Virus genome (UHGV): UHGV-0180032
Direction: 5' to 3' (one strand)
DNA from: a virus
DNA: 64,000 nucleotides
Within the stretch, counting starts at the first letter, position 1. Every line of letters begins with the position of its first letter. A program made the translations under genes and the position numbers. Shown here in pieces: positions 15,030-60,522 of the stretch. A model generated the notes under the pieces. The model saw only the letters and a list, made by a program, of their open reading frames with translations, searched no databases and was not told where the DNA came from.

Positions 15030-15074
15030 TCAGATATATATTACCTAGAGGAGAGCGAAATTTACATTCGCTCT
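15028..15074 (+). promoter_or_regulatory. conserved promoter-like box plus stem-loop, copy A
   Basis: tctcagatatatattacctagaggagag followed by hairpin agagcg/cgctct; near-identical box at 18331 and 54431. Confidence 0.45.
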
Positions 15075-18330: not shown

Positions 18331-18373
18331 TTTCAGATATATATTACCTAGGTGAGAGTTCAGCTACTCTCAC
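18331..18373 (+). promoter_or_regulatory. conserved promoter-like box plus stem-loop, copy B
   Basis: tttcagatatatattacctaggtgagag with hairpin gtgagagt/actctcac; upstream of 18404 gene. Confidence 0.45.
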
Positions 18374-23714: not shown

Positions 23715-23815
23715 ACTGGTTTGCTAAACTCTTAGCGTTATTGTGGAAAGCGTTAACGTCTGGTCGAAAACGTAAAGACGAAAAACGTGGGCAAGAATTC
23801 TTCTGGTTTTTGTAA
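23711..23815 (+). CDS. small hydrophobic ORF (34 aa), possible holin or lysis accessory
   Basis: ATG overlaps lysozyme stop (ATGA); MNWFAKLLALLWKALTSGRKRKDEKRGQEFFWFL; below track size cutoff. Confidence 0.3.
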   Translation: MNWFAKLLALLWKALTSGRKRKDEKRGQEFFWFL

Positions 23816-48737: not shown

Positions 48738-48947
48738 TTAGTCTTTTTTGTAGACGATCGCGTTACCGTGCAGTTTGTTGTTACCGGAAATACCGATAAC
48801 TTTAAACGCTTCACCGCCGATCTTTTCAGCTTCGACAGCCAGCTTAGCAGTAACGTCGTCTACGGTGTCACCGAAAGCGCTTACGTTACCAATTTTCTTG
48901 AACTCTTCAGGAATGTGTTCGGCAGAAGAGAATTCTTTAATAGCCAT
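48738..48947 (-). CDS. BhsA/YcfR-like DUF1471 domain protein without signal peptide
   Basis: KIGNVSAFGDTVDDVTAKLAVEAEKIGGEAFKVIGISGNNKLHGNAIVYK closely resembles recalled E. coli BhsA domain; in-frame stop right upstream of ATG; SD ggagag. Confidence 0.65.
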   Translation of the reverse strand: MAIKEFSSAEHIPEEFKKIGNVSAFGDTVDDVTAKLAVEAEKIGGEAFKVIGISGNNKLHGNAIVYKKD

Positions 48948-49147: not shown

Positions 49148-50113
49148 TTAGCGCGGGCCTGAAGTTGGACCATGTACACCGTCGTGGATGTGTACGCTGA
49201 AGGTAATACCGGAAATCACCGCATCCTTAACCGTAAAGACACCCACACCTTCACCCGTACCACCGTATTTGAAGTTCTTAGCAACTTCCAAATTACCGGT
49301 GAACATTGCTTCATTACCCTCTTGCTTAAAGTTCGGCGTTTTATACGTTGTGGAACCGGAGGCTTCGGTTAGCCACGTTTCTGTTTTAAAGGTAACCGAT
49401 TTCGACGCTTCGGTATTCCGAACTTCGCATTTCTCATTAATCGTTTTCGTTTCCAGGTTAATCGAACGTTTTGCGTAAATGAACGCATCCTCTTTGTTGA
49501 TGTTCACTTTCGAGAGCATCGCGTTCTCAAAACCTAAATCGTCTTCCACCGAGTTAATGTAATACTTATTCCCTTTATGGTCAACGCACTGCCACGATCC
49601 GTTAGCGTTATCGAATTGGAATAACCACGCCGCTTTCTCCCCGTTCACCATGCTTGTTCTTAGGGTAACGTGTTTGTCAATCGTTGAGACGTTTAACACA
49701 TACGCGTTCGACAAGTCATCCGCCATCTGGTTTTCAGGGTCAGCAGACCACGCGTAAACCGCATCCTCTAATCGCTTAACGTTAGCGAAATTCAAATCAA
49801 TCCAAAAATAAATATCAGTTTGCCCTAGACGTAGCAGAATAACGTAATCTTCACGCTTAACGTCTGGGGAATTAATTCGGTTGGAATTAAACTTCCACCA
49901 CTTTGCAGTAATCGTGTTACCGGTTTTAATCGTTAGGTTGTCGGTAGCACCCCCGGCTTCGTGTACCTTTTCAGCGGTTGAAGAAACGGATTGTACAACG
50001 GTAGGGTTCGCAAAGTTGGTTTCAATGGGAATAACACTCACCCGATCCGTACCACGAGGTTTATCTTCCGCGACGATACCAATCGAGAAAAAGTCAACGC
50101 TGGATTTCTCCAT
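49148..50113 (-). CDS. hypothetical protein (321 aa) with C-terminal His-rich motif (VHIHDGVHGP)
   Basis: Track ORF; possible structural protein, unverified. Confidence 0.55.
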   Translation of the reverse strand: MEKSSVDFFSIGIVAEDKPRGTDRVSVIPIETNFANPTVVQSVSSTAEKVHEAGGATDNLTIKTGNTITAKWWKFNSNRINSPDVKREDYVILLRLGQTDIYFWIDLNFANVKRLEDAVYAWSADPENQMADDLSNAYVLNVSTIDKHVTLRTSMVNGEKAAWLFQFDNANGSWQCVDHKGNKYYINSVEDDLGFENAMLSKVNINKEDAFIYAKRSINLETKTINEKCEVRNTEASKSVTFKTETWLTEASGSTTYKTPNFKQEGNEAMFTGNLEVAKNFKYGGTGEGVGVFTVKDAVISGITFSVHIHDGVHGPTSGPR

Positions 50114-50140: not shown

Positions 50141-50193
50141 ATCAGATATATTTTACTTAGGTGAGTAGGGGCTGAACTCGCACTTCAGCCCCT
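50141..50193 (+). promoter_or_regulatory. degenerate copy (D) of promoter-like box plus stem-loop
   Basis: atcagatatattttacttaggtgag followed by perfect 10-bp hairpin aggggctgaa/ttcagcccct; lies in divergent intergenic region. Confidence 0.4.
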
Positions 50194-50245: not shown

Positions 50246-50323
50246 ATGTCTACTGAGAAGAAAAGCGGATTGGACGAAGTCATCGAACTGTTCAAACGCT
50301 ACAACCCGGCTATTCCTCGGTAA
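50246..50323 (+). CDS. tiny ORF (25 aa) downstream of box D
   Basis: ATG with aggag SD; MSTEKKSGLDEVIELFKRYNPAIPR. Confidence 0.25.
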   Translation: MSTEKKSGLDEVIELFKRYNPAIPR

Positions 50324-50501
50324 TCATAGTATTACTTAAAATTTACAGATTGACCCTTTATTCTGCTACTCGGGATACCGGTAGGGGGTAGGGGGCAATA
50401 TGTATACGGATATAAATAGCGGAGGTATACGTAGTATACCGACATACTCTTCCCAGAGGAACGTAGTGACTTCCTTATTCCTTTTTAGGAGAATAAACCC
50501 C

Positions 50502-51239
50502 ATGAGAGACTTAATTGACGATATCTTTACCAATACCAGTTTAGAGCTTTCTTCTACGGTGGTTAACGATCTAATAGGGCAACCGTATCCTGCTAAGTTA
50601 ATGTCAGTCGGTACCATTAAACCCGAAGATTATCCAGACAATGACATTATCGACTGTATAATTGACGAATACACGATAGCCAGTTACGCCAGCCGGGTCT
50701 TCTTTGTTCTTAATAGCGAAACCAGTGTCATTTTAATCTATAAGTTGATTAGTGGTGCTGAACTTGAAGTTGTAGCCGACCACATTCGTCTTATTGCGAG
50801 TACGATTGATGATTTCGCTGTTGCGCTTTTTGGAGACAGTTGGCCTTTGCAACCCCTGTTCGCTTACTTCCCACTGTTTAAGCATGGAATAGGGTTAATC
50901 CGACATACAGAAACCCTTCCCGATAACGTAGAGCTATCGCTGCTTGGACCCGGCATCGATCTTTATCCATTAAAAGACGAGGGCACGCTATATGGTTTGC
51001 GCATTTATGTTTCTCTGTTAGAGGGATACCGCGTTATTGAATTGATTGCATCAGATTTAGCAAAACAGATCCCTGAAGTAGAAACGATTTCTAAAGCCAC
51101 CCACCAGGTTGAGATTAACCTAGGCGATCCCTTATTGAAATATCACAAAGAAATTGACCTTCGTAAAATCGCCACAACAAGAGGGTGGGGGTGTGCTGAG
51201 GTTACGAATGGCTATCTGTTATTAATTAAAACCGCGTAA
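50502..51239 (+). CDS. hypothetical protein, member 1 of GW...LLF paralog family
   Basis: Track ORF 50400..51239 trimmed to ATG 50502 (aggag SD); C-terminus RGWGCAEVTNGYLLLIKTA. Confidence 0.5.
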   Translation: MRDLIDDIFTNTSLELSSTVVNDLIGQPYPAKLMSVGTIKPEDYPDNDIIDCIIDEYTIASYASRVFFVLNSETSVILIYKLISGAELEVVADHIRLIASTIDDFAVALFGDSWPLQPLFAYFPLFKHGIGLIRHTETLPDNVELSLLGPGIDLYPLKDEGTLYGLRIYVSLLEGYRVIELIASDLAKQIPEVETISKATHQVEINLGDPLLKYHKEIDLRKIATTRGWGCAEVTNGYLLLIKTA

Positions 51240-51264
51240 GTAAAAACCTAAAGGAGAAAATATC

Positions 51265-51804
51265 ATGATTAGTATCGAAATGAAACAACAAGTTATTGAA
51301 TTTATTAACCGGGGCGTGGGTAAACATCGTTTTGAAAACCCGTACAATATATTGTCTAACGTTATCCAACCGGGTACATTGATCACTGGTATTGAAGTAG
51401 AAAAAATCAGCGAAGATGCTGTGCTTTATTATCGCGGTTACGGGGATAGCTTTACCGAATTATTCCGTAAACTGTTTTCCGGTACCGGATGGAAAGTGAC
51501 GAGCGCGTCCTACGACGGTGGCGCGGATGTTGTTACGCTTCTAGACACGGGGAAAGCACTCTATATCGTGAACTTTACTTTCGCAAGACGCTACGCGTAT
51601 TTCCCGAACCCTCTTACGTGTACGTTAAGTAACCCAGGATTACTGTTGACAGATAAAGAAGCGGAAACACTACTTACAGAACTGAAGAAGGACGGTTGCG
51701 ACGCTGGCGATTGGGAAACATTGGTAGGGACAGCAAAAGCACACGGTTGGTATACCGTGCGTAATCTCGGTCAGCAGTTGTTGTTCTTAGCTTATAATGT
51801 TTAA
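51265..51804 (+). CDS. hypothetical protein, member 2 of GW...QLLF paralog family
   Basis: SD aaggag; C-terminus AHGWYTVRNLGQQLLFLAYNV plus internal GWKVTSASYDGGADVVTLL. Confidence 0.6.
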   Translation: MISIEMKQQVIEFINRGVGKHRFENPYNILSNVIQPGTLITGIEVEKISEDAVLYYRGYGDSFTELFRKLFSGTGWKVTSASYDGGADVVTLLDTGKALYIVNFTFARRYAYFPNPLTCTLSNPGLLLTDKEAETLLTELKKDGCDAGDWETLVGTAKAHGWYTVRNLGQQLLFLAYNV

Positions 51805-51815
51805 AGGATAATATC

Positions 51816-52943
51816 ATGCATATTTGCCATAACGCACCGTCGCACAGACTTTATCTTGAAATGCTTTTCGAGGACTACAAGAAAGGGGTGCCGAAAATAT
51901 TACTTAGCATCTCAGGTGCCACGCAAACTGAATTGTTCGGTCGTGTTTTTGGTTGTACCGTTAACGCTTTGCCAGAACCAATCTGTGCACCTGTGGATGT
52001 TTGTGTTTTCGACGAGCGAATTGAGGATTTTCAATTCACCTTTTACGTAAATGATTCTTTACCGTACGACAAACTTTACGTTCGTGAGTTGAAATCAAAT
52101 CAGCGGTTAATGTACCGCGTCTATCCACCCCACAAATGGTCGGTGCTAGAGTATAAAATCAGGCGGCTACCTTACGAGGGTGTGCAATTACTCGACCAGC
52201 AGGATATGGCTTTTCTGGAAGAACTTTGCGGATTTGAAATTGAGAAGATTCACGTAACCCAGGAAATATCCCGAAACGTACCTAGTCGTCATACCCCTAA
52301 CGGTGGATTTCCGTACGAGTTCACCGACACAGGACTAAGGCTCGTAACCGAATTTAACGACGTAATGTATTACGCAGTGTGTATTGAACGTAAAGTAGTG
52401 GAGAAAGAAATGGCAAGTACATTGAAAGAAGAATTAGCCCAATTCATTCGTGATGTTGAAGAGAAAAGCAAGAGCGATCACATATTCTCACAACGCTATC
52501 CTGAACTTATTGACGAAACCACCGATAGTGTCGTCGACGGTATACGCATTTTCCCAAGTGGTCTTGCAATCTACCGACTACCTAGCGTTAACCAGCTTAA
52601 AGTCATGGAAATGCTAAAAGACGTTTTAGCAGAAGCGGGTTGGGAATATCGCTTCGATTGCAATTTCGAAGGGATGGCGTTATTCGTTACAAAGAAAAAC
52701 TATACCTTGTCAATCGATCTACCTAAAAGTCAATATTACAGTTTCTTCCCGAAAGCGGATGACCGCACTGAAAAAGAACCTGCGATGTTACTTGATGCGG
52801 CAGAATCCAATACGTTAATGGTGCGTCTGCGGTCAATTGACAAAAAGTTAAACACCAGTCATTTAACGACGATCGGTAAAGATTACGGTTGGAAATCTGT
52901 CGAACCGTACGGCAGTCAGCTGCTGTTTGTTGCTGACCTTTAA
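51816..52943 (+). CDS. hypothetical protein, member 3 of GW...QLLF paralog family
   Basis: SD aaggat; C-terminus DYGWKSVEPYGSQLLFVADL plus internal AGWEYRFDCNFEGMALFV. Confidence 0.6.
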   Translation: MHICHNAPSHRLYLEMLFEDYKKGVPKILLSISGATQTELFGRVFGCTVNALPEPICAPVDVCVFDERIEDFQFTFYVNDSLPYDKLYVRELKSNQRLMYRVYPPHKWSVLEYKIRRLPYEGVQLLDQQDMAFLEELCGFEIEKIHVTQEISRNVPSRHTPNGGFPYEFTDTGLRLVTEFNDVMYYAVCIERKVVEKEMASTLKEELAQFIRDVEEKSKSDHIFSQRYPELIDETTDSVVDGIRIFPSGLAIYRLPSVNQLKVMEMLKDVLAEAGWEYRFDCNFEGMALFVTKKNYTLSIDLPKSQYYSFFPKADDRTEKEPAMLLDAAESNTLMVRLRSIDKKLNTSHLTTIGKDYGWKSVEPYGSQLLFVADL

Positions 52944-53010
52944 TAAGTGAAAATACACTTTCTCTAACTGCCGCGCTTTAGTCGCGGCTTTTGTTAAGAA
53001 GGAAATAGAA

Positions 53011-53784
53011 ATGAAAGTCCATTTAGACGACCTCTTTAAAACTGAACCGTATATGGTTAAAGGTTCATTGGCTTCACTGTTGTTAGATGATAGATTTCAT
53101 CGAACGCTCCAATTACAATCGGTCGAATCCGCACCAACAGAAGACGTGGGTCTTTATCAACGTATCACTTATACACGCGGAGAATATCGGCGATATAAAC
53201 CTGATACGCTAACCGTTAAGCTCTGGCAAGTGGCCACAGGCAAAGTATTAACTTATCGCACTGTTGGTCTGTACTACGTTGAACGTGCCTACGCGTGGTT
53301 AGAAGAAGTTAAAGAAATGGATTACGACCGCTTAAGCAAAAGACTGCGCGATAACAACGCCAGTTTACCGATACGCAATTATTTCTCCACAATTGAAAAT
53401 AGTCGTTGTTTCGTTTCACGCGAATCCATGATATTGCCTGGGGCTGATGTTCAGACGACACTAAAAGATGTGGTTGTGAGGAAAATCTTTCATGAATCTG
53501 AACACGTTGGATTTCGTATCTATTTAACTCACAAGAGGCCATTTACCGTGATTCATCTTGTTACCGTACCCGAAGGCTCAGCGGTCGTACGTGAACTTCC
53601 TGACGCACGTGACCGTAGTCCTAATGAGCCGCTTTACTTAATGTCAGGAACAAAATCAGAATCTTTGATGTCCCGTTACAGCATGGTTGATGTTGTTGAT
53701 ACTGCTATGAAGTTAGGTTGGAAAGAAGTACAGCAGCACGGCAAACAATTGCTGTTTATCGCAGATGTAAATCTCAATAACTAA
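53011..53784 (+). CDS. hypothetical protein, member 4 of GW...QLLF paralog family
   Basis: SD aaggaa; C-terminus LGWKEVQQHGKQLLFIADV. Confidence 0.6.
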   Translation: MKVHLDDLFKTEPYMVKGSLASLLLDDRFHRTLQLQSVESAPTEDVGLYQRITYTRGEYRRYKPDTLTVKLWQVATGKVLTYRTVGLYYVERAYAWLEEVKEMDYDRLSKRLRDNNASLPIRNYFSTIENSRCFVSRESMILPGADVQTTLKDVVVRKIFHESEHVGFRIYLTHKRPFTVIHLVTVPEGSAVVRELPDARDRSPNEPLYLMSGTKSESLMSRYSMVDVVDTAMKLGWKEVQQHGKQLLFIADVNLNN

Positions 53785-53796
53785 AGAGGTGGTACC

Positions 53797-54375
53797 GTGT
53801 ACCGATTAATAGAAATGAGAAAAGACGTTTGGTTGGAAAACCTCGTCGATGGGGAGCTCGAGGGAATAGAGCTTTCCTTACCAGAGAGAGCGGACACGGT
53901 ATTGGCCTTTCTGGTAAAACAGGCAGACCGTGAACCGGTAGGAATCTTCACTGTGGACTATAAAGATCCACGAGGAATCCATTTACGGAACATTTGCAGT
54001 GGTTTGGAAAACTTACCGGCTAATCCGTTCTTAAACTACGCAAAACGTAAACTCCAACCGGGACAACACCTCTGGGTAACGTTATCGCCTGACGTTAGGA
54101 TCATACGTGACGATTACTCGGCGTTTGTACAGGCAACGAAAGTCAGTCTGTATAACCCGAACGCAGAGCGTACCGATATGCCGTTTATAATTACCTTAGA
54201 AGACGATGGAACGCAAGAAGGTATCGAGGCAATTACGGAATTAGTAAACTCTTATCCGGTTGCCACTATGGAGTTAGAAAACCCAAGCCGACTACCGTTG
54301 GGTGACCTGCTCGAATGGATTGAACTGAATACAGAATTCTTAATCAATTCTCGTCAGTATCGATTCGATGTTTAA
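53797..54375 (+). CDS. hypothetical protein (192 aa)
   Basis: Track ORF; SD agaggtgg. Confidence 0.55.
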   Translation: MYRLIEMRKDVWLENLVDGELEGIELSLPERADTVLAFLVKQADREPVGIFTVDYKDPRGIHLRNICSGLENLPANPFLNYAKRKLQPGQHLWVTLSPDVRIIRDDYSAFVQATKVSLYNPNAERTDMPFIITLEDDGTQEGIEAITELVNSYPVATMELENPSRLPLGDLLEWIELNTEFLINSRQYRFDV

Positions 54376-54379
54376 CAAC

Positions 54380-54410
54380 GGTGGGGTGTAAGCCCCACCT
54401 TTTATTTTTT
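54380..54410 (+). terminator. intrinsic terminator
   Basis: Stem ggtgggg/ccccacc then T-run ttttattttttt. Confidence 0.65.
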
Positions 54411-54430: not shown

Positions 54431-54473
54431 ATCTCAGATATATATTACTCAGGTGAGAGTTAAGATTAACTCT
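54431..54473 (+). promoter_or_regulatory. conserved promoter-like box plus stem-loop, copy C
   Basis: atctcagatatatattactcaggtgagag with hairpin agagtta/taactct; upstream of secreted-protein gene block. Confidence 0.45.
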
Positions 54474-54504: not shown

Positions 54505-54966
54505 ATGAAAATCTTCACTTCCTTTTTAATCGCCCTTTTCGCAATCGGATTCAATACTGCACACGCCGCAATCAATAGCTGGGAACAACTACCGAACCCA
54601 GGTCAGGCTGTTTACGAAATTGAAGATACCGCCGGAAACGGACTGTCTATCAACTGTGACACTGAAACTGCGAATCGCAAATTTTACGGTCGCATGGTTT
54701 GGTATTACGGGGAACCTGTAGGTGCAACTAACGCTGAAGACAACACGTTGGATATTGTCGTAAATGGCAAAACCTACAACATCCCTACCGTGGATGGTAG
54801 TGACAAAGCAGAACTCGCTTGGGTGGCTTTCGTTAACGCTATCGGTAACGCCAAAACGTTCAGTGTGAATATCAATGGTAACGAAGCTGCTAACTTTACC
54901 GTAGAAGGCGAACGTCTGTCGGAAACTTTCTTCCAGAACTGTGGACACACCCGTCCTAACAAATAA
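54505..54966 (+). CDS. small secreted protein (cleavable signal peptide)
   Basis: N-terminal MKIFTSFLIALFAIGFNTAHA; SD aggag. Confidence 0.6.
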   Translation: MKIFTSFLIALFAIGFNTAHAAINSWEQLPNPGQAVYEIEDTAGNGLSINCDTETANRKFYGRMVWYYGEPVGATNAEDNTLDIVVNGKTYNIPTVDGSDKAELAWVAFVNAIGNAKTFSVNINGNEAANFTVEGERLSETFFQNCGHTRPNK

Positions 54967-54988
54967 GTATTAATCTTTTTTAGAGTGC

Positions 54989-55381
54989 GTGAAAATGAAT
55001 ATCAGAACTATACTTTATACAATCATTATTTTCTGTGCAATCGGCATTACTGGCACTTATGCTTTCGGTGGCTCGGATGTCAGCCATTACGAACCGGCTC
55101 CTGACTCACCGATTATCAACCCGGATGAGTCCCCTACGTTAATGCGCAGTTTCGGTAAACTGCAAGTTTATCGCTTAGTACGTGGTGAAACGTGTACCGG
55201 ATTACTCATTGCTGACACCCGTGCACAAGTCTACCAACGTCTGACGGATATCGCCTGCGAACAACCAAAAGTCATGTCGGTCAGTATTCATCCGTTAGAG
55301 GTCGGTAATTATACTGCTGTGGACTTCTTCCATAATGCAGAACTGATTGGCCGTATTACTTTAAATCGTAGCGCTGAATAA
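54989..55381 (+). CDS. small secreted protein (signal peptide); start GTG 54989 or ATG 54995
   Basis: N-terminal hydrophobic segment TILYTIIIFCAIGITGTYA. Confidence 0.5.
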   Translation: MKMNIRTILYTIIIFCAIGITGTYAFGGSDVSHYEPAPDSPIINPDESPTLMRSFGKLQVYRLVRGETCTGLLIADTRAQVYQRLTDIACEQPKVMSVSIHPLEVGNYTAVDFFHNAELIGRITLNRSAE

Positions 55382-55399
55382 TTTAATGGAGAATTTACA

Positions 55400-55888
55400 A
55401 TGAAACGTTTACACACCCTGATGTTCTTCGTGGCTATTCTTTTCACAGGCTTTACCTTTAACGCAGAAGCGGCTACCGTAAAACAAGCTCTTAGCTGTAA
55501 CCCGGAAGCCTGGGCTGAACAACCTGGTGCGTGTCCATCAACGTACGAGTTGTACGAAGGTGACGCTACCTACAAAGCCGCTATCGACAAAGCATTAAAA
55601 CCGGTCGGACTGAGCGGCATGTTCGGTAAAGGCGGCTATATGGATGGCCCTGGTGGAGGTATCACGCCAGTAAACATTAACGGTACAGTCTGGCTCCAGG
55701 GCGACGGTTGCAAAGCCAATACCTGCGGCTGGGACTTTATCGTAACACTCTATAACCCAAAAACCCATGAAGTTGTTGGCTACCGTTACTTTGGTTTAGA
55801 TGACCCGGCCTACCTGGTTTGGTTCGGTGAAATTGGCGTGCATGAATTCGCGTATCTGGTGAAAAACTACGTAGCTGCGGTTAACTAA
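55400..55888 (+). CDS. Ivy-family periplasmic lysozyme inhibitor homologue
   Basis: Signal peptide; KGGYM...GDGCKANTCGWDFIVTLYNPKTHEVVG resembles recalled Ivy CKPHDCGSQRIAVMW region; SD ggaga. Confidence 0.6.
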   Translation: MKRLHTLMFFVAILFTGFTFNAEAATVKQALSCNPEAWAEQPGACPSTYELYEGDATYKAAIDKALKPVGLSGMFGKGGYMDGPGGGITPVNINGTVWLQGDGCKANTCGWDFIVTLYNPKTHEVVGYRYFGLDDPAYLVWFGEIGVHEFAYLVKNYVAAVN

Positions 55889-55903
55889 TTTAAGGAGTCT
55901 ATC

Positions 55904-56314
55904 ATGAAAACGTTTATCAAAACTTTACTCGTTGCTGTAACTGTTCTGTTCTCTCTTAACGTGGCAGCAAAAACAGTAAAACTACCGGCGGGTATCAAAT
56001 ACGTCAACAGTACCGATGAATTCTACTGCACAGAAATTGACGGTCTGTATTGCCAGACAAAGAATTTGTTTGAATACAAAGGTAACAGATATGTTTTCGT
56101 TGTTGAGCAAGGCGGTGCCTGGTGCTACGACAGCCCTATGTCGGTACTCAACCTGGAAACTTGGAAAGCACAGAAAATTGAATACAAAGACAACCAACTG
56201 TGTTCAGGCGAAAACAAACCGTTCTTCAAAATCAAAAATGGTGTCCCGACTGTAGGTATTATCGACACCTCTGGAACACCAATCGTTGTAGCTCAGGACA
56301 AACTTAAAATCTAA
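55904..56314 (+). CDS. small secreted protein (signal peptide), Cys-containing
   Basis: N-terminal MKTFIKTLLVAVTVLFSLNVAA; SD aaggag. Confidence 0.6.
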   Translation: MKTFIKTLLVAVTVLFSLNVAAKTVKLPAGIKYVNSTDEFYCTEIDGLYCQTKNLFEYKGNRYVFVVEQGGAWCYDSPMSVLNLETWKAQKIEYKDNQLCSGENKPFFKIKNGVPTVGIIDTSGTPIVVAQDKLKI

Positions 56315-56324
56315 GGAGTAAACC

Positions 56325-56714
56325 ATGCGTCTTATCTGCGCTTTGTTGGCGTTTTTCTCAATCGGAGTTATGGCTTCTACACACATCGACGATTTATTAC
56401 TTACCCCGGCAACGAACACAGACTATCACTACAACCCACCGGGTTTTGAAGTCTGCGAAGGCGATGCAGGCGAATGCCAAGAAGTTGGCGCAGATGGACG
56501 CTATATACTCGTAAAAGCAGACGGCGGGACAACCTGTCCTGCGGGTTATTATTTCGTACTTGACTCTGTAGCAAAAGAGGTGCTTCCTGTAACGACCAAA
56601 ACGTGTGACCCCACAGTTGTACTAACGCTTGCGAAAAGCAAATCACGTGACCGTCATCTTATCGTCATCGAAGAACGCGGTGAGATGCTAGGCGCTATCG
56701 AATTAGATTACTGA
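56325..56714 (+). CDS. small secreted protein (signal peptide), Cys-containing
   Basis: N-terminal MRLICALLAFFSIGVMAS; SD aaggag. Confidence 0.6.
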   Translation: MRLICALLAFFSIGVMASTHIDDLLLTPATNTDYHYNPPGFEVCEGDAGECQEVGADGRYILVKADGGTTCPAGYYFVLDSVAKEVLPVTTKTCDPTVVLTLAKSKSRDRHLIVIEERGEMLGAIELDY

Positions 56715-56725
56715 TGTGTAGTCTT

Positions 56726-56764
56726 GACCCCGGTTCGTGCCGATTCGTCCGGGGTCCTTTTTAC
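56726..56764 (+). terminator. terminator-like hairpin
   Basis: Stem gaccccgg/ccggggtc then ctttttac. Confidence 0.5.
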
Positions 56765-56792
56765 GACTTGTTTTACCTAAAGGAGAATTAAA

Positions 56793-57269
56793 ATGCGTTT
56801 ATCTAATGTTTATCAAGCAGCCCAATTCCATCACGAACTGACGGCTAAGCCTGAGTATATTCGCCACAACTTAACGGTGGCATGGAAACTGTTAGTGATT
56901 GCTGATGCAGCACGGCACAACGACCAGGAAACCATTATCAAAACTGTGCGTACTTTACGCCCTATTGACCTGGAAACAATTTGGTCGTTTGACTTAACTC
57001 GAATTTATCATCGTCGTTTTAATGCGGCGGTGGATGCGATACGTCCTTATTTCCACTATTTGCAAGCAACATCGGACTGTGGTCCATCCTTAGAGTGGGT
57101 CTTGGTACAAAGCGTATGGAGCGATTACATTTATCTCCTATCTTTAGAGACGGGTGAATGCATTATCGCTAACGAGGTATTCTCAACCAACGCCGAAATG
57201 TATCGTTCCCACGCTACTATCCAGGGTGTCTCACAGCCTATCTTATCACTCACGCACTTAGGGCTGTGA
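56793..57269 (+). CDS. hypothetical protein (158 aa)
   Basis: Track ORF; SD aaggag. Confidence 0.55.
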   Translation: MRLSNVYQAAQFHHELTAKPEYIRHNLTVAWKLLVIADAARHNDQETIIKTVRTLRPIDLETIWSFDLTRIYHRRFNAAVDAIRPYFHYLQATSDCGPSLEWVLVQSVWSDYIYLLSLETGECIIANEVFSTNAEMYRSHATIQGVSQPILSLTHLGL

Positions 57270-57323: not shown

Positions 57324-57932
57324 ATGAACGAAATTACTTTGGTTCGTTTTATCGAAGCGATGCATCGAAACGAAGCTAATCCGCACTCTCCGTTATTCAT
57401 CGATTTAATGGAGGAAGAAGTCGAAGGGTTCTTAGCGTACCCGCGTTTGAAAGCGTATTTCGAACGTAAAACACCAACCGCTTACGAGAAGTTGATGTAC
57501 GCGTTAGACAACCGTACTACGCTGAACACCACACCGTTTAAAGCGCTGGAAGCAATTGACCCTACCGGGGGCGCAGGTATCCCACAACGTGTTGTGTTCT
57601 ACTACATCGACAACGGCCGTATTAAAGCCGACGTTGTAAACTGGATCTCCGAAGGGGAAATCCCAGAAACGCGTACTTTTAACCTCTGTCCGGTGGAAGA
57701 AGGTTGGGTCGCAGGAACGCATTATTCCTATCCGTATCAAAGCATCAAATCGCCTTATCTGTATCCGGTGTATTTAGATGACGTTACGCCAGGCAAATGT
57801 ATTCCCGTTACCAATCTGATTTGCTTACTGACGATGGAAGTTGTTGCGTCAGATGCAGGCCAGGCTTGGGTTGAGCAATCGAAGAATATCCAAAACTGGC
57901 AGGAGATGGGTTACAAACTCTACCAGCCGTAA
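57324..57932 (+). CDS. hypothetical protein (202 aa)
   Basis: Track ORF; SD aaggaaa. Confidence 0.55.
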   Translation: MNEITLVRFIEAMHRNEANPHSPLFIDLMEEEVEGFLAYPRLKAYFERKTPTAYEKLMYALDNRTTLNTTPFKALEAIDPTGGAGIPQRVVFYYIDNGRIKADVVNWISEGEIPETRTFNLCPVEEGWVAGTHYSYPYQSIKSPYLYPVYLDDVTPGKCIPVTNLICLLTMEVVASDAGQAWVEQSKNIQNWQEMGYKLYQP

Positions 57933-57938
57933 TACCAC

Positions 57939-57988
57939 GAGAGAACCTTCGGGTTCTCTCCCTTCTCTTTTATTTTTTTTTCTTTTTA
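57939..57988 (+). terminator. intrinsic terminator
   Basis: Stem gagagaacc/ggttctctc then long T-run. Confidence 0.65.
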
Positions 57989-58017
57989 CACCACGCTCCG
58001 TGAATATGGAGGTGGAC

Positions 58018-60522
58018 ATGTTAAAAGTTGAACGTATTGTACTTAAAGGATTTACCGGAATGGGGTTACACGAAATCGAAACCTTCGATTTTACTATCCA
58101 TTCCCCGACCACCATTATCCTCGGTGGTAACGGCTGCGGTAAGACCAGCTTACTGTCCGTGTTTCTACCTATCGCACCTTCGAAATCCGAATTCCGTGAC
58201 GGGGGTTCTTACACCAATATCTGTTTGGTTAACGACCATCGTTACAAGTTTAAAGTTGCACGTAAAGGCAACTCACTGGTTTGCGATATCGAGAACCTGA
58301 CGACGGGTACCAAAATCGTCGAGCAAGGTAATGCGAAAGTGTACAACTCTCGCGTGGAAGAAATCACGGGTATTACAAAAGAGATTAAAGAGTTACTGAA
58401 CGGGGAAGTGCTTTTAACCGATGCAGGAACGGAACTGCGTCGTAAGTGGTTCTACCGTTTAAGTACATCAGACTTAACGTACGCGTTAGGTTTTTATCAA
58501 CGTTTACGAAAAAACCTGACGATGCTAAACGGCGGTATTGAAATCACCAGCCGTAAAATTGCAGAGTTGCGTACCCGCGTAATTGATAACGAGGAAGAAC
58601 GACAGCAGTTAGCAACACGGTTAAAAGCATTAGAAGCAGATTTACGTGAACTCAACAAACAGATCGAACAACTGCCTGGTCTGAATCGTGACGTTACGGT
58701 GGCAACGATTCAATCGCTATTGCTTAAAATCGAAGCACCGATTAATGCTATCTTGGAACACCGTGGTGGATTACCTACGGAAGAACAGGTAGAGGAAGCA
58801 CGACGCGTTGAAGCCACTGCCCGTGAAGCGGTGGTCTCTGCTGAAACAGAACTGTCTATGCTAAACAAAGATTTGTCTTTGTTGATGGACGAGTCTACCC
58901 GCCAAGATTACCTGATGCGAAATCACGAAGGGTTAAAGAACACGGTTGCGAAACTGCGCGAGTTATTAAAGCAGTGGGACACTGAGCACCTTTTCCCTGA
59001 ACTGTTTGCGGAGACCGTTAACATCGACCAGCTTAAAGCAGCGACGGATGCGCGTGTCTGGGGACAACGTTTAGGAACAACGCTGGACGCCATTAAATCA
59101 ACGGAACGGTTGAACGTACTGGAAGAGAAACTGTTGACCTTAGACCAAAACTCGTCTGGGTTGCGTGACCGACTGCAACGTGTTGAAAACGTATTGCAGA
59201 ACCTCAACCACGAACGGAATCACTATTTGGAAACCGCCGAGGTTGATTGTCCGCAGTGTCAGTTTAAATTCCGTCCGGGTGTCCGTCGTTCTTTGCCTGA
59301 ATTGGAAGAAGCCATTCGTGGGCAGATGGAGCAACGTAATACGTTACAGACTCAACTTGATTCCGTGTTGCGAGACCGTACGGAATTAGAATCGGACGTT
59401 AATTACATGCGTCAAGTACGAGAAATCGTTTTAACATACTCGAAAGACCCGGTATTGAGTTTGTTCTTTAAACGTCTCCAGGAGCGGAATGTCTTTACGG
59501 ATAACCGCAGTCAGTTCGGCAGTTTGTGCGCAGAGTTCGATCGTGAACTTTATTCCGCAATTGAGTACCACGAAACGAAACACCGTTTCGCTAAAGCGGA
59601 AAAAGAGTGGGCAAACGCAGTTGCAGCGGTAGGTAACGTTGACGGTGCACTACAGCAGAAAATTGCCTTCCAACAGGAACGTTTGGGTAAGGCAACAGAA
59701 ACGCTCTCAGAGCGCCGTAGAGAGCACGCAGTTGCTAATGATACCTTTTGTTATCTAAACGAACTTAAAGCCACTGTAGACAATTTTAATGCGGTTTTTG
59801 AGCGTTTAGAGAACGATGTTAAGGTAACATTAACCAACACGGTGGTCGAAACGTTATTAAACGCCCGAGAAAACAAGTTGGATGCGTTCACCACAGCACG
59901 AGAACGGTATCGTCAAATGGAAAACGAACTCAACCAACTTACTGCGTTAGAAAAGGAGTTATCAGATTTACAAGCGCAGCAATTCAATAACAAGCTGATG
60001 ATTCAAGCGTTCTCGCCCGAGAAAGGGGTACTACGCAAATACTTCTACAACGCTATCGTGAGAATCACGGAATTGATGACGCGGTATATCGAACAAGTCT
60101 GGACCTACCCTATGCGGGTCATGCCGTGTGACTTAACCGACGGTGACTTAGACTACACCTTCCCAGTGCAGTTGAAAACCCATCCTGAACCGGTACCTGA
60201 CGTACGGAAAGGGTCGAAAGCACAGCGAGCCATCTTTAATTTGATGTTTCGTTTAACCGCTTACAAGGCCCTGAAACTCCATCAGTATCCGCTACTGTTG
60301 GATGAACCGTCAGAAGGGATGGATGAAGAACACCGAAATAACCTCGTTGGGTTTATTAAAACCTTGGCGAATTCCGGTGAGTTCTCTCAGTTACTGGTGG
60401 TGTCTCACGAAGCAGAAATTCATTCAAAACTTAACGAAGCCGCATACTGTGTTATTGAACCTGAAGGCGTAACACTGCCTGCGGTTTACAATGAAGGAGT
60501 AAAAATTGTCTACGCAAACTGA
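58018..60522 (+). CDS. Rad50/SbcC-like recombination/repair ATPase with coiled coil and zinc hook
   Basis: Track ORF 57841..60522 trimmed to ATG 58018 (ggaggtgg SD); Walker A GGNGCGKTS, central CPQC hook within coiled coil, C-terminal LLLDEPSEGMD Walker B and SHEAE. Confidence 0.65.
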   Translation: MLKVERIVLKGFTGMGLHEIETFDFTIHSPTTIILGGNGCGKTSLLSVFLPIAPSKSEFRDGGSYTNICLVNDHRYKFKVARKGNSLVCDIENLTTGTKIVEQGNAKVYNSRVEEITGITKEIKELLNGEVLLTDAGTELRRKWFYRLSTSDLTYALGFYQRLRKNLTMLNGGIEITSRKIAELRTRVIDNEEERQQLATRLKALEADLRELNKQIEQLPGLNRDVTVATIQSLLLKIEAPINAILEHRGGLPTEEQVEEARRVEATAREAVVSAETELSMLNKDLSLLMDESTRQDYLMRNHEGLKNTVAKLRELLKQWDTEHLFPELFAETVNIDQLKAATDARVWGQRLGTTLDAIKSTERLNVLEEKLLTLDQNSSGLRDRLQRVENVLQNLNHERNHYLETAEVDCPQCQFKFRPGVRRSLPELEEAIRGQMEQRNTLQTQLDSVLRDRTELESDVNYMRQVREIVLTYSKDPVLSLFFKRLQERNVFTDNRSQFGSLCAEFDRELYSAIEYHETKHRFAKAEKEWANAVAAVGNVDGALQQKIAFQQERLGKATETLSERRREHAVANDTFCYLNELKATVDNFNAVFERLENDVKVTLTNTVVETLLNARENKLDAFTTARERYRQMENELNQLTALEKELSDLQAQQFNNKLMIQAFSPEKGVLRKYFYNAIVRITELMTRYIEQVWTYPMRVMPCDLTDGDLDYTFPVQLKTHPEPVPDVRKGSKAQRAIFNLMFRLTAYKALKLHQYPLLLDEPSEGMDEEHRNNLVGFIKTLANSGEFSQLLVVSHEAEIHSKLNEAAYCVIEPEGVTLPAVYNEGVKIVYAN

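Follow-up and report, generated by a model that had tools for sequence, protein, structure and literature searches.

The array beside the spike gene

The 64,000-nucleotide stretch of DNA that we analysed as a whole (the window; UHGV virus genome UHGV-0180032) stems from a phiKZ-like, SPN3US/Erskinevirus-related jumbo phage of about 222 kb and of the nucleus-forming type. Divergently from its gene for the baseplate central spike run five plus-strand genes, g1 to g5 (Table 1). An earlier note, made by a model from the sequence alone, had described the first four as a paralogous family with a shared C-terminal motif, and the four consecutive genes are indeed present, each with a Shine-Dalgarno (SD) sequence. 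The start of g1 is the one used by 84/84 g1 orthologues, and g2 orthologues of 177–185 amino acids (aa) are found in many contigs of about 225 kb. As set out below, g2, g3, g4 and probably g1 belong to an orphan protein family of SPN3US-like jumbo phages related to phiKZ, and form a tandem expansion of it that is specific to this lineage.

Table 1. Features of the spike–g5 locus, in window coordinates (HMM, hidden Markov model; AF2, AlphaFold2; pLDDT, predicted local distance difference test; ORF, open reading frame)
Feature	Position	Strand	Basis and remarks
Baseplate central spike gene	49148..50113	-	phrog_3216, E=5e-112; divergent neighbour marking the syntenic slot
Early-promoter-like AT-rich box, TCAGATATATTTTAC	50142..50156	+	One mismatch to the 15-mer TCAGATATATATTAC
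Hairpin at predicted transcript 5' end, AGGGGCTGAA-loop-TTCAGCCCCT	50167..50193	+	Read from sequence
Small ORF, 25 aa (MSTEKKSGLDEVIELFKRYNPAIPR), first cistron	50246..50323	+	SD AGGAG 8 nt upstream
Invariant non-coding block upstream of g1, ~160 nt	50324..50483	+	Includes TTTACAGAT and two hairpins, one long and G-rich, the other small
g1, 245 aa, probable diverged member (unproven)	50502..51239	+	HMM E=2.4; hhalign P ~2e-4
g2, 179 aa, family member, shortest form	51265..51804	+	Independent HMM E=4.5e-11; AF2 pLDDT 85
C-terminal module of g2	51568..51801	+	HMM alignment; AF2 model
g3, 375 aa, family member	51816..52943	+	Independent HMM E=5.9e-16; phrog_26772 and phrog_33648 matches
C-terminal module of g3	52698..52940	+	HMM alignment
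Terminator-like hairpin, perhaps partial, between g3 and g4	52970..52996	+	GCCGCG-loop-CGCGGC, then TTTTGT
g4, 257 aa, family member nearest the family consensus	53011..53784	+	Independent HMM E=1.1e-22; phrog_26772, 33648, 24489, 18480
C-terminal module of g4, LPDARDRSPNEPLYLMS...GWKEVQQHGKQLLFIA	53563..53781	+	HMM alignment; AF2 on 29-sequence alignment
g5, 192 aa, last operon gene, non-member	53797..54375	+	phrog_20879, E=5e-31; hhalign vs g1–g4 P=0.14-0.59
Predicted intrinsic terminator closing the operon	54380..54409	+	GGTGGGG-loop-CCCCACC, then TTTTATTTTT; next box at 54434

Homology within the array

Searching the six-frame translation of the window for the strict motif GW..V...G.QLLF[IVL]A gave exactly three hits, namely the C-termini of g2, g3 and g4. 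The statement of the earlier note that each protein of the array ends with the motif thus holds for these three, while g1 ends with RGWGCAEVTNGYLLLIKTA and does not match the strict form. For a profile search with the C-termini, as the note had proposed, we used an HMM made from 28 family representatives of a library of 1.84 billion proteins (window genes and orthologues excluded) and scored it against all 634 window ORFs of at least 40 aa. The alignment was significant for g2–g4 (E=4.5e-11 to 1.1e-22), the next ORF reaching 0.16 and g1 2.4. Profile–profile comparison of the orthologue alignments linked g2 to g3 (E=6e-11, 108 columns), g3 to g4 (E=1e-10, 124 columns) and g2 to g4 (E=1e-5); g5, taken as a control, gave hhalign P-values in the range listed in Table 1 against each of g1–g4. 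Since the g2–g3 and g3–g4 alignments span 108 and 124 columns, the homology extends beyond the terminal motif, and by these profile comparisons g2, g3 and g4 are securely homologous over some 110–125 aa.

Of the four members originally claimed, g1 is thus the marginal one. Its hhalign comparisons yielded P=1.6e-4 to 2.6e-4 at a probability of 42–50%, with the match at the correct C-terminal position (residues 219–242 vs the family), the alignment with g4 (P=2.6e-4, probability 42%) covering 126 columns. Common to g1 and g4 are LRKIA..RGW......LLLI at the C-terminal end and a G.RIY strand. That g1 is a diverged family member is plausible, albeit unproven.

Second, internal copies of the motif, which the earlier note had seen in g2 and g3, did not withstand closer inspection: their HMM domain E-values were 26–100, and hhalign comparison of internal with C-terminal segments from sliced alignments gave P=0.04–0.55 over 3–11 columns, so that internal duplication was rejected. 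What the internal segments share with the C-terminal ones is just a helix-GW-strand pattern, and g4 has no internal GW. The N-terminal parts, on the other hand, had been described correctly as unrelated, as profile–profile comparison revealed no detectable similarity among them (best P=0.07).

The C-terminal module

Defined on an alignment of 32 representatives, the module follows the pattern (I/L/F)PD..DR(S/T).N(E/D)P.YLMS, helix, variable linker, second helix, GW..V...G.QLLFI(A/S). Its invariant residues (P, P, G, W and G) are not of a catalytic type. Within the conserved unit of approximately 110–125 aa, the core module accounts for 65–75 aa. It occupies the extreme C-terminus of proteins of 72–412 aa and is also found as stand-alone proteins of 72–130 aa, which argues that it is an autonomous unit. 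The predicted topology is a strand (P.YLMS), two helices and a beta-hairpin (GW..V...G.QLLF), preceded in the long forms by a helix and three strands. In the AF2 model of g2 (pLDDT 85; predicted template modelling score 0.73), the strand is placed at residues 125–128, the helices at 130–142 and 150–159 and the hairpin at 164–175; the 75-aa module of g4, modelled from 29 sequences with a pLDDT of 86, likewise was predicted as a strand, two helices and a beta-hairpin.

Scans of g1–g5 and 29 family members with Pfam, NCBIfam and PADLOC returned nothing above threshold, and the sub-threshold library matches Mrr_cat, MtrG and TBPIP were all rejected. When the PDB was searched with sequence profiles of the family and of g1, g2 and g3, no credible match emerged; two matches of g1 were discarded on inspection, one to TcdA residues 153–240 (18 bits), the other to a designed repeat protein, where repeats of ~5 bits each had been summed. 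Foldseek against BFVD retrieved uncharacterised proteins of Erwinia and other jumbo phages and nothing else. A known housekeeping fold with an annotated function, which the earlier note had regarded as an outcome that would speak against its proposal, was therefore matched in none of Pfam, NCBIfam, PADLOC, the PDB profiles and Foldseek BFVD. Class I S-adenosylmethionine (SAM)-dependent methyltransferases (5icc, 4gek) match in a C-terminal beta-alpha-beta-hairpin substructure of their Rossmann fold and in nothing more; neither a complete Rossmann fold nor SAM-binding motifs were found in the family, and the identity of 5–17% is not evidence of homology. Among the PHROGs, g3 and g4 fall into four families of 'unknown function' (against phrog_26772, E=4e-11 for g4 and 3.7e-5 for g3). 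The family had thus already been clustered there as unknown, and what is new is the definition of the domain, its expansion, the putative early-operon context and the recombination pattern.

Distribution and synteny

At E<=1e-3, the 1.84-billion-protein library contains 35 representatives, of which three are spurious (P0092, P0102 and P0113, excluded as EGF-repeat or low-complexity proteins); the remaining ~32 genuine clusters are all located on phage or phage-like contigs. This is a small family with a new C-terminal module that is confined to such contigs. A degenerate DNA pattern searched in IMG/VR picked up five loci, 0/5 of which scored with the family HMM. In isolated phages, the family appears in 64 records with one copy each, all of them jumbo phages of 218–270 kb, with Erwinia, Salmonella, Cronobacter, Escherichia, Proteus and Shewanella as hosts. 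Among their members is SPN3US gp175 (SPN3US_0175, YP_009153469; phrog_33648), which carries the same module (HMM E=9e-26) in the same slot by the divergent spike gene; the phiKZ gp175 protease has the same number but is irrelevant to the family. Further homologues with the module are phiEaH2 gp097 (J7KJG5) and hypothetical proteins of CR5, Phobos and EarlPhillipIV (phrog_26772, 24489, 18480). By tblastn, g4 matched the SPN3US, Phobos and CR5 homologues at E-values of 1e-5 to 1e-7, and g1 and g2 gave zero matches in phage genomes.

A single member stands directly after the divergent spike gene in SPN3US, phiEaH2 and the metagenomic relatives L004 and L007, with a different N-terminus in each. 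Overall, the slot beside the spike gene was seen in the window, in L004, L007 and three further related loci (L010, L011 and L017), and in the two isolated phages. The spike protein itself is 73% identical in aa sequence to phiEaH2 gp095 (from an Erwinia phage) and 64% to the SPN3US gp173 group, and Pfam Phage_spike is present in the spike gene of related loci. SPN3US, phiEaH2, CR5, Phobos and EarlPhillipIV have a single copy each, compared with three or four in the window, and N-termini unrelated to those found here. As the four-gene array is kept in L010, L011 and L017 and the others are single-copy, the tandem expansion appears specific to this lineage. Homologues of g5 exist in SPN3US (gp177) and phiEaH2 (gp099); they are missing in L004 and L007, and g5 was rejected as a universal partner.

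Megablast of the locus against INPHARED (50,697 phage records) gave zero nucleotide matches, and the lineage is therefore absent from these isolated phages. It has been deposited as a circular 'plasmid' of E. coli 98232 (221,873 bp) and Enterobacter ludwigii (222,441 bp), and many ~225-kb contigs of the lineage are contained in Salmonella, Shigella and E. coli isolate assemblies. The two deposits, NZ_CP173450.1 (our L017; strain 98232 is from human urine) and NZ_CP134650.1, belong to complete genomes, in which the lineage stands as a ~222-kb 'plasmid'. Together, the plasmid-like deposits and the isolate contigs suggest that a phage of the nucleus-forming type persists in a carrier state or by pseudolysogeny.

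Replacement of N-terminal cassettes

Relative to L010, the spike is 99.7% and g5 97.9% identical at the aa level, and the flanks have 92–96% nucleotide identity. Against this background, blastn detected no similarity at 50500–51032 (g1 codons 1–177) or 51795–52426 (g3 codons 1–204). Counted per 30 residues, aa identity to L010 was 20–60% in the replaced N-terminal blocks of g1 and g3 versus 90–100% in the C-terminal blocks, with 63–73% for the N-terminus of g4. The N-terminal 204 aa of g3 are present as a divergent allele in both L010 and L011, the N-terminal 177 aa of g1 in L010, and in the comparison with L011 g2 is replaced too, save for its last 62 bp. Synonymous differences are saturated in the replaced halves (proportion of synonymous differences, pS, 0.79–0.86; background synonymous divergence, dS, 0.08–0.2), and the ratio of non-synonymous to synonymous divergence (dN/dS), where measurable, is 0.1–0.4. 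The E. coli 'plasmid' copy fits in here with a locus coverage of 73% at 90.9% identity, compared with 99% at 94.9% for the structural region. Positive selection on point mutations was rejected as the cause of the N-terminal diversity, as the pattern is one of allele exchange. To judge from these alignments, recombination exchanges old, diverged N-terminal alleles, with breakpoints that lie where the gene starts and where the conserved unit is bordered, and the C-terminal unit stays nearly identical, evidently under purifying selection.

Four copies of a 12-mer, CGTTAACGCTTT, with the palindrome CGTTAACG inside it, are present in the window, at 23747 (minus strand), 37327, 42311 and 51959 (plus strand), the last copy lying within g3.

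Operon and expression signals

The promoter-like box that the earlier note had placed ahead of the array is present (Table 1). It differs at one position from the 15-mer TCAGATATATATTAC, which occurs exactly at 15030–15044, 18333–18347 and 54434–54448; all four boxes lie on the plus strand. Conservation includes their flanks, with an A/T-rich tract upstream and TAGGTGAG downstream, followed by a hairpin that differs among the four, and each box has an array of small, mostly orphan genes downstream. A terminator or T-rich tract precedes 3/4 boxes; at 50142, it is the start of the divergent spike gene that precedes the box. The box is conserved in L004 (there directly upstream of the family member), L010, L011 and L017, and a degenerate form is found upstream of SPN3US gp175. 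Early promoters of jumbo-phage virion RNA polymerases have a conserved AT-rich element near -10 with a T-rich upstream part (PMC7598289, PMC8244752), and the boxes described here probably are the early (virion RNA polymerase) promoter of this lineage, with a structured 5' end. Likewise, phiKZ-type early operons have a conserved AT-rich box of ~10–15 nt, an A/T-rich upstream tract, a terminator before it and a one-strand array of small orphan genes after it (PMC7598289, PMC8244752); they differ in that the motif sequence found here is lineage-specific.

We infer an operon that would begin with the box at 50142 and comprise the hairpin at 50167–50193, the small ORF, the ~160-nt leader and g1–g5, up to the terminator at 54380–54409. 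The small ORF at its head is retained in L010, L011 and L017, with a hypervariable sequence. In the block between this ORF and g1, about 155/160 alignment columns are invariant across the window, L010, L011 and L017, the flanking genes being 82–96% identical. The block folds as a long hairpin (z=-1.95), and its small hairpin, GGTATAC-GTA-GTATACC, has a compensatory variant in SPN3US, where the block is partly conserved; an Rfam search with the block gave no match. It may be a regulatory RNA or leader, or may harbour a second promoter (TTTACAGAT).

Some features of the neighbourhood deserve mention. Behind the next box, an operon at 54505–57269 (plus strand) encodes small proteins, and N-terminal signal peptides (e.g., MKIFTSFLIALFAIGFNTAHA) are present in at least three of them (54505, 54989 and 55400); its first gene has a Pfam YfjT match in relatives, and its products may be secreted or periplasmic early proteins. 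Further downstream, at 57841–60522 (plus strand), lies a gene for an SbcC-like subunit (phrog_77, E=2e-93), the counterpart of the essential SPN3US gp186. Between the tail genes and the spike, a 69-aa DUF1471/YdgH-BhsA-like gene (48738–48947, minus strand) is kept in SPN3US and relatives; the family comprises enterobacterial periplasmic stress proteins, and the window protein apparently is without signal peptide.

Discussion

The overall picture drawn in the earlier note, that of a conserved C-terminal domain on diversified N-termini arrayed in tandem behind a promoter box, is borne out by the HMM, hhalign, the box and the allele replacement alike. As to function, we favor the following scenario. 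The virion RNA polymerase would transcribe the operon right after DNA injection, and the g1–g4 proteins would then work in the infected cell and not in the virion. The C-terminal module could provide a common function, either by associating with itself or by docking to a single conserved partner from phage or host, and the swappable N-terminal domains could provide specificity for variable host targets. Such target specificity would point to an accessory role in host takeover, counter-defence or host range. The host-takeover flavor that the earlier note had given to the array fits the early-type promoter and the replacement of N-terminal cassettes, and also the finding that SPN3US virions are without gp175. 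We assign this combination of early expression, a shared scaffold or docking module and specificity-determining N-termini a probability of roughly 0.45, i.e. somewhat short of even odds. Several points weigh against it: the early timing is read from a sequence motif, the docking or oligomerization role of the module is a guess from architecture, and none of the neighbouring genes is kept in every lineage. Moreover, every family member is annotated 'hypothetical', and absence from the virion is documented for SPN3US gp175 alone.

The earlier note had also offered an effector or immunity-like reading, which found no support. Bacterial polymorphic toxin and effector–immunity systems likewise are modular, with one conserved and one hypervariable part, are diversified by recombination and often stand in tandem. 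In polymorphic toxins, however, it is the N-terminus that is conserved and the C-terminus that varies, and the window family has the reverse polarity. Nor did the locus contain adjacent small genes in the pattern of cognate immunity genes, a toxin domain or any match in Pfam, PADLOC or NCBIfam.

An architecture of the kind seen here is known from the ankyrin/PRANC (F-box-like) multigene families of poxviruses, host-range factors in which a conserved C-terminal docking domain is combined with variable N-terminal target-binding domains. The likeness is an analogy of architecture alone, without relation in sequence or fold. Carried over to the jumbo phages, it would make the module a docking or targeting domain that brings interchangeable N-terminal cassettes to one conserved hub, and the array a toolkit for host range and counter-defence built on a new fold, whose cassettes would pass between co-circulating jumbo phages through recombination, with the conserved module as its anchor. 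The hub may be a host protease or other core machine, the early-infection vesicle or the nuclear shell. In this specific form, we regard the idea as unlikely.

Alternatively, the module might be a small domain of winged-helix-like or R3H-like type that binds nucleic acids, and the genes might encode early regulators of transcription, translation or DNA metabolism with effector or sensor N-termini. This, too, seems unlikely to us: comparison of the module with winged-helix DNA-binding proteins brought to light neither a match to solved winged helix-turn-helix domains nor a basic recognition helix.

Quite unlikely in our estimation, though in line with several of the observations, is a role in superinfection exclusion or inter-phage competition, where the pressure to diversify would come from related jumbo phages in co-circulation and not from host defences. 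Deeply diverged alleles are exchanged among very close phages with common hosts, the genes appear to be expressed early, and the lineage persists in bacterial isolates as an episome-like contig of ~222 kb, a situation in which the exclusion of relatives would pay. However, sequence inspection revealed no membrane-targeting sequences in g1–g4 (grand average of hydropathy -0.39 to 0.2), and the present data do not separate exclusion from counter-defence.

The position of the genes next to the spike gene in every lineage, together with a modular hypervariability typical of receptor-binding proteins, could also mean that they encode spike-associated structural or host-recognition proteins, with the C-terminus as virion anchor and the N-termini as receptor-facing parts or ejected effectors. 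The virion data speak against this, and we consider it improbable. Mass spectrometry of purified SPN3US virions (83 proteins, PMC5105663 Table S4) lists gp171, the spike gp173 and then gp193, so that gp175 is absent from a published table that bears on the SPN3US homologue only; gp175 also is without a phiKZ homologue and without the 'STR' (structural) flag. In Goslar and PhiKZ, the hub/spike density has been fully assigned to other proteins, namely the spike, cap and tube-initiator proteins (bioRxiv 10.64898/2026.04.21.720040). Furthermore, the genes of the array point away from the spike gene and stand behind an early-type box, and they are small and devoid of fibre-like repeats.

Hardly credible, finally, is a degenerate PD-(D/E)xK (Mrr-like) nuclease fold of the 110–125-aa unit, active or decayed and acting on host or competitor DNA: the predicted order of secondary structure elements in g2, alpha-beta-beta-beta-alpha(-alpha)-beta, would be compatible with it, but the Pfam Mrr_cat match is confined to g2 (residues 61–102) and stays below threshold (E=0.038, 14.5 bits vs a cut-off of 21), and the aligned segment is not conserved in g2 orthologues, g3 or g4, where no catalytic D...(D/E)xK pattern was found.

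Among the candidates for phage therapy against Salmonella, E. coli and Erwinia are nucleus-forming jumbo phages, whose early genes mostly have no known role. The locus described here supplies a defined, alignable domain that has no Pfam entry. Should the genes turn out to be dispensable, the locus would be one more hypervariable accessory region. Because N-terminal alleles with saturated synonymous divergence are embedded in genomes that are otherwise 92–96% identical, the genes are likely determinants of strain-specific success. If the module indeed turns out to be a docking domain common to these proteins, one could use it to search for the hub, of host or phage, to which it binds, and would have a natural scaffold on which to swap specificity domains.

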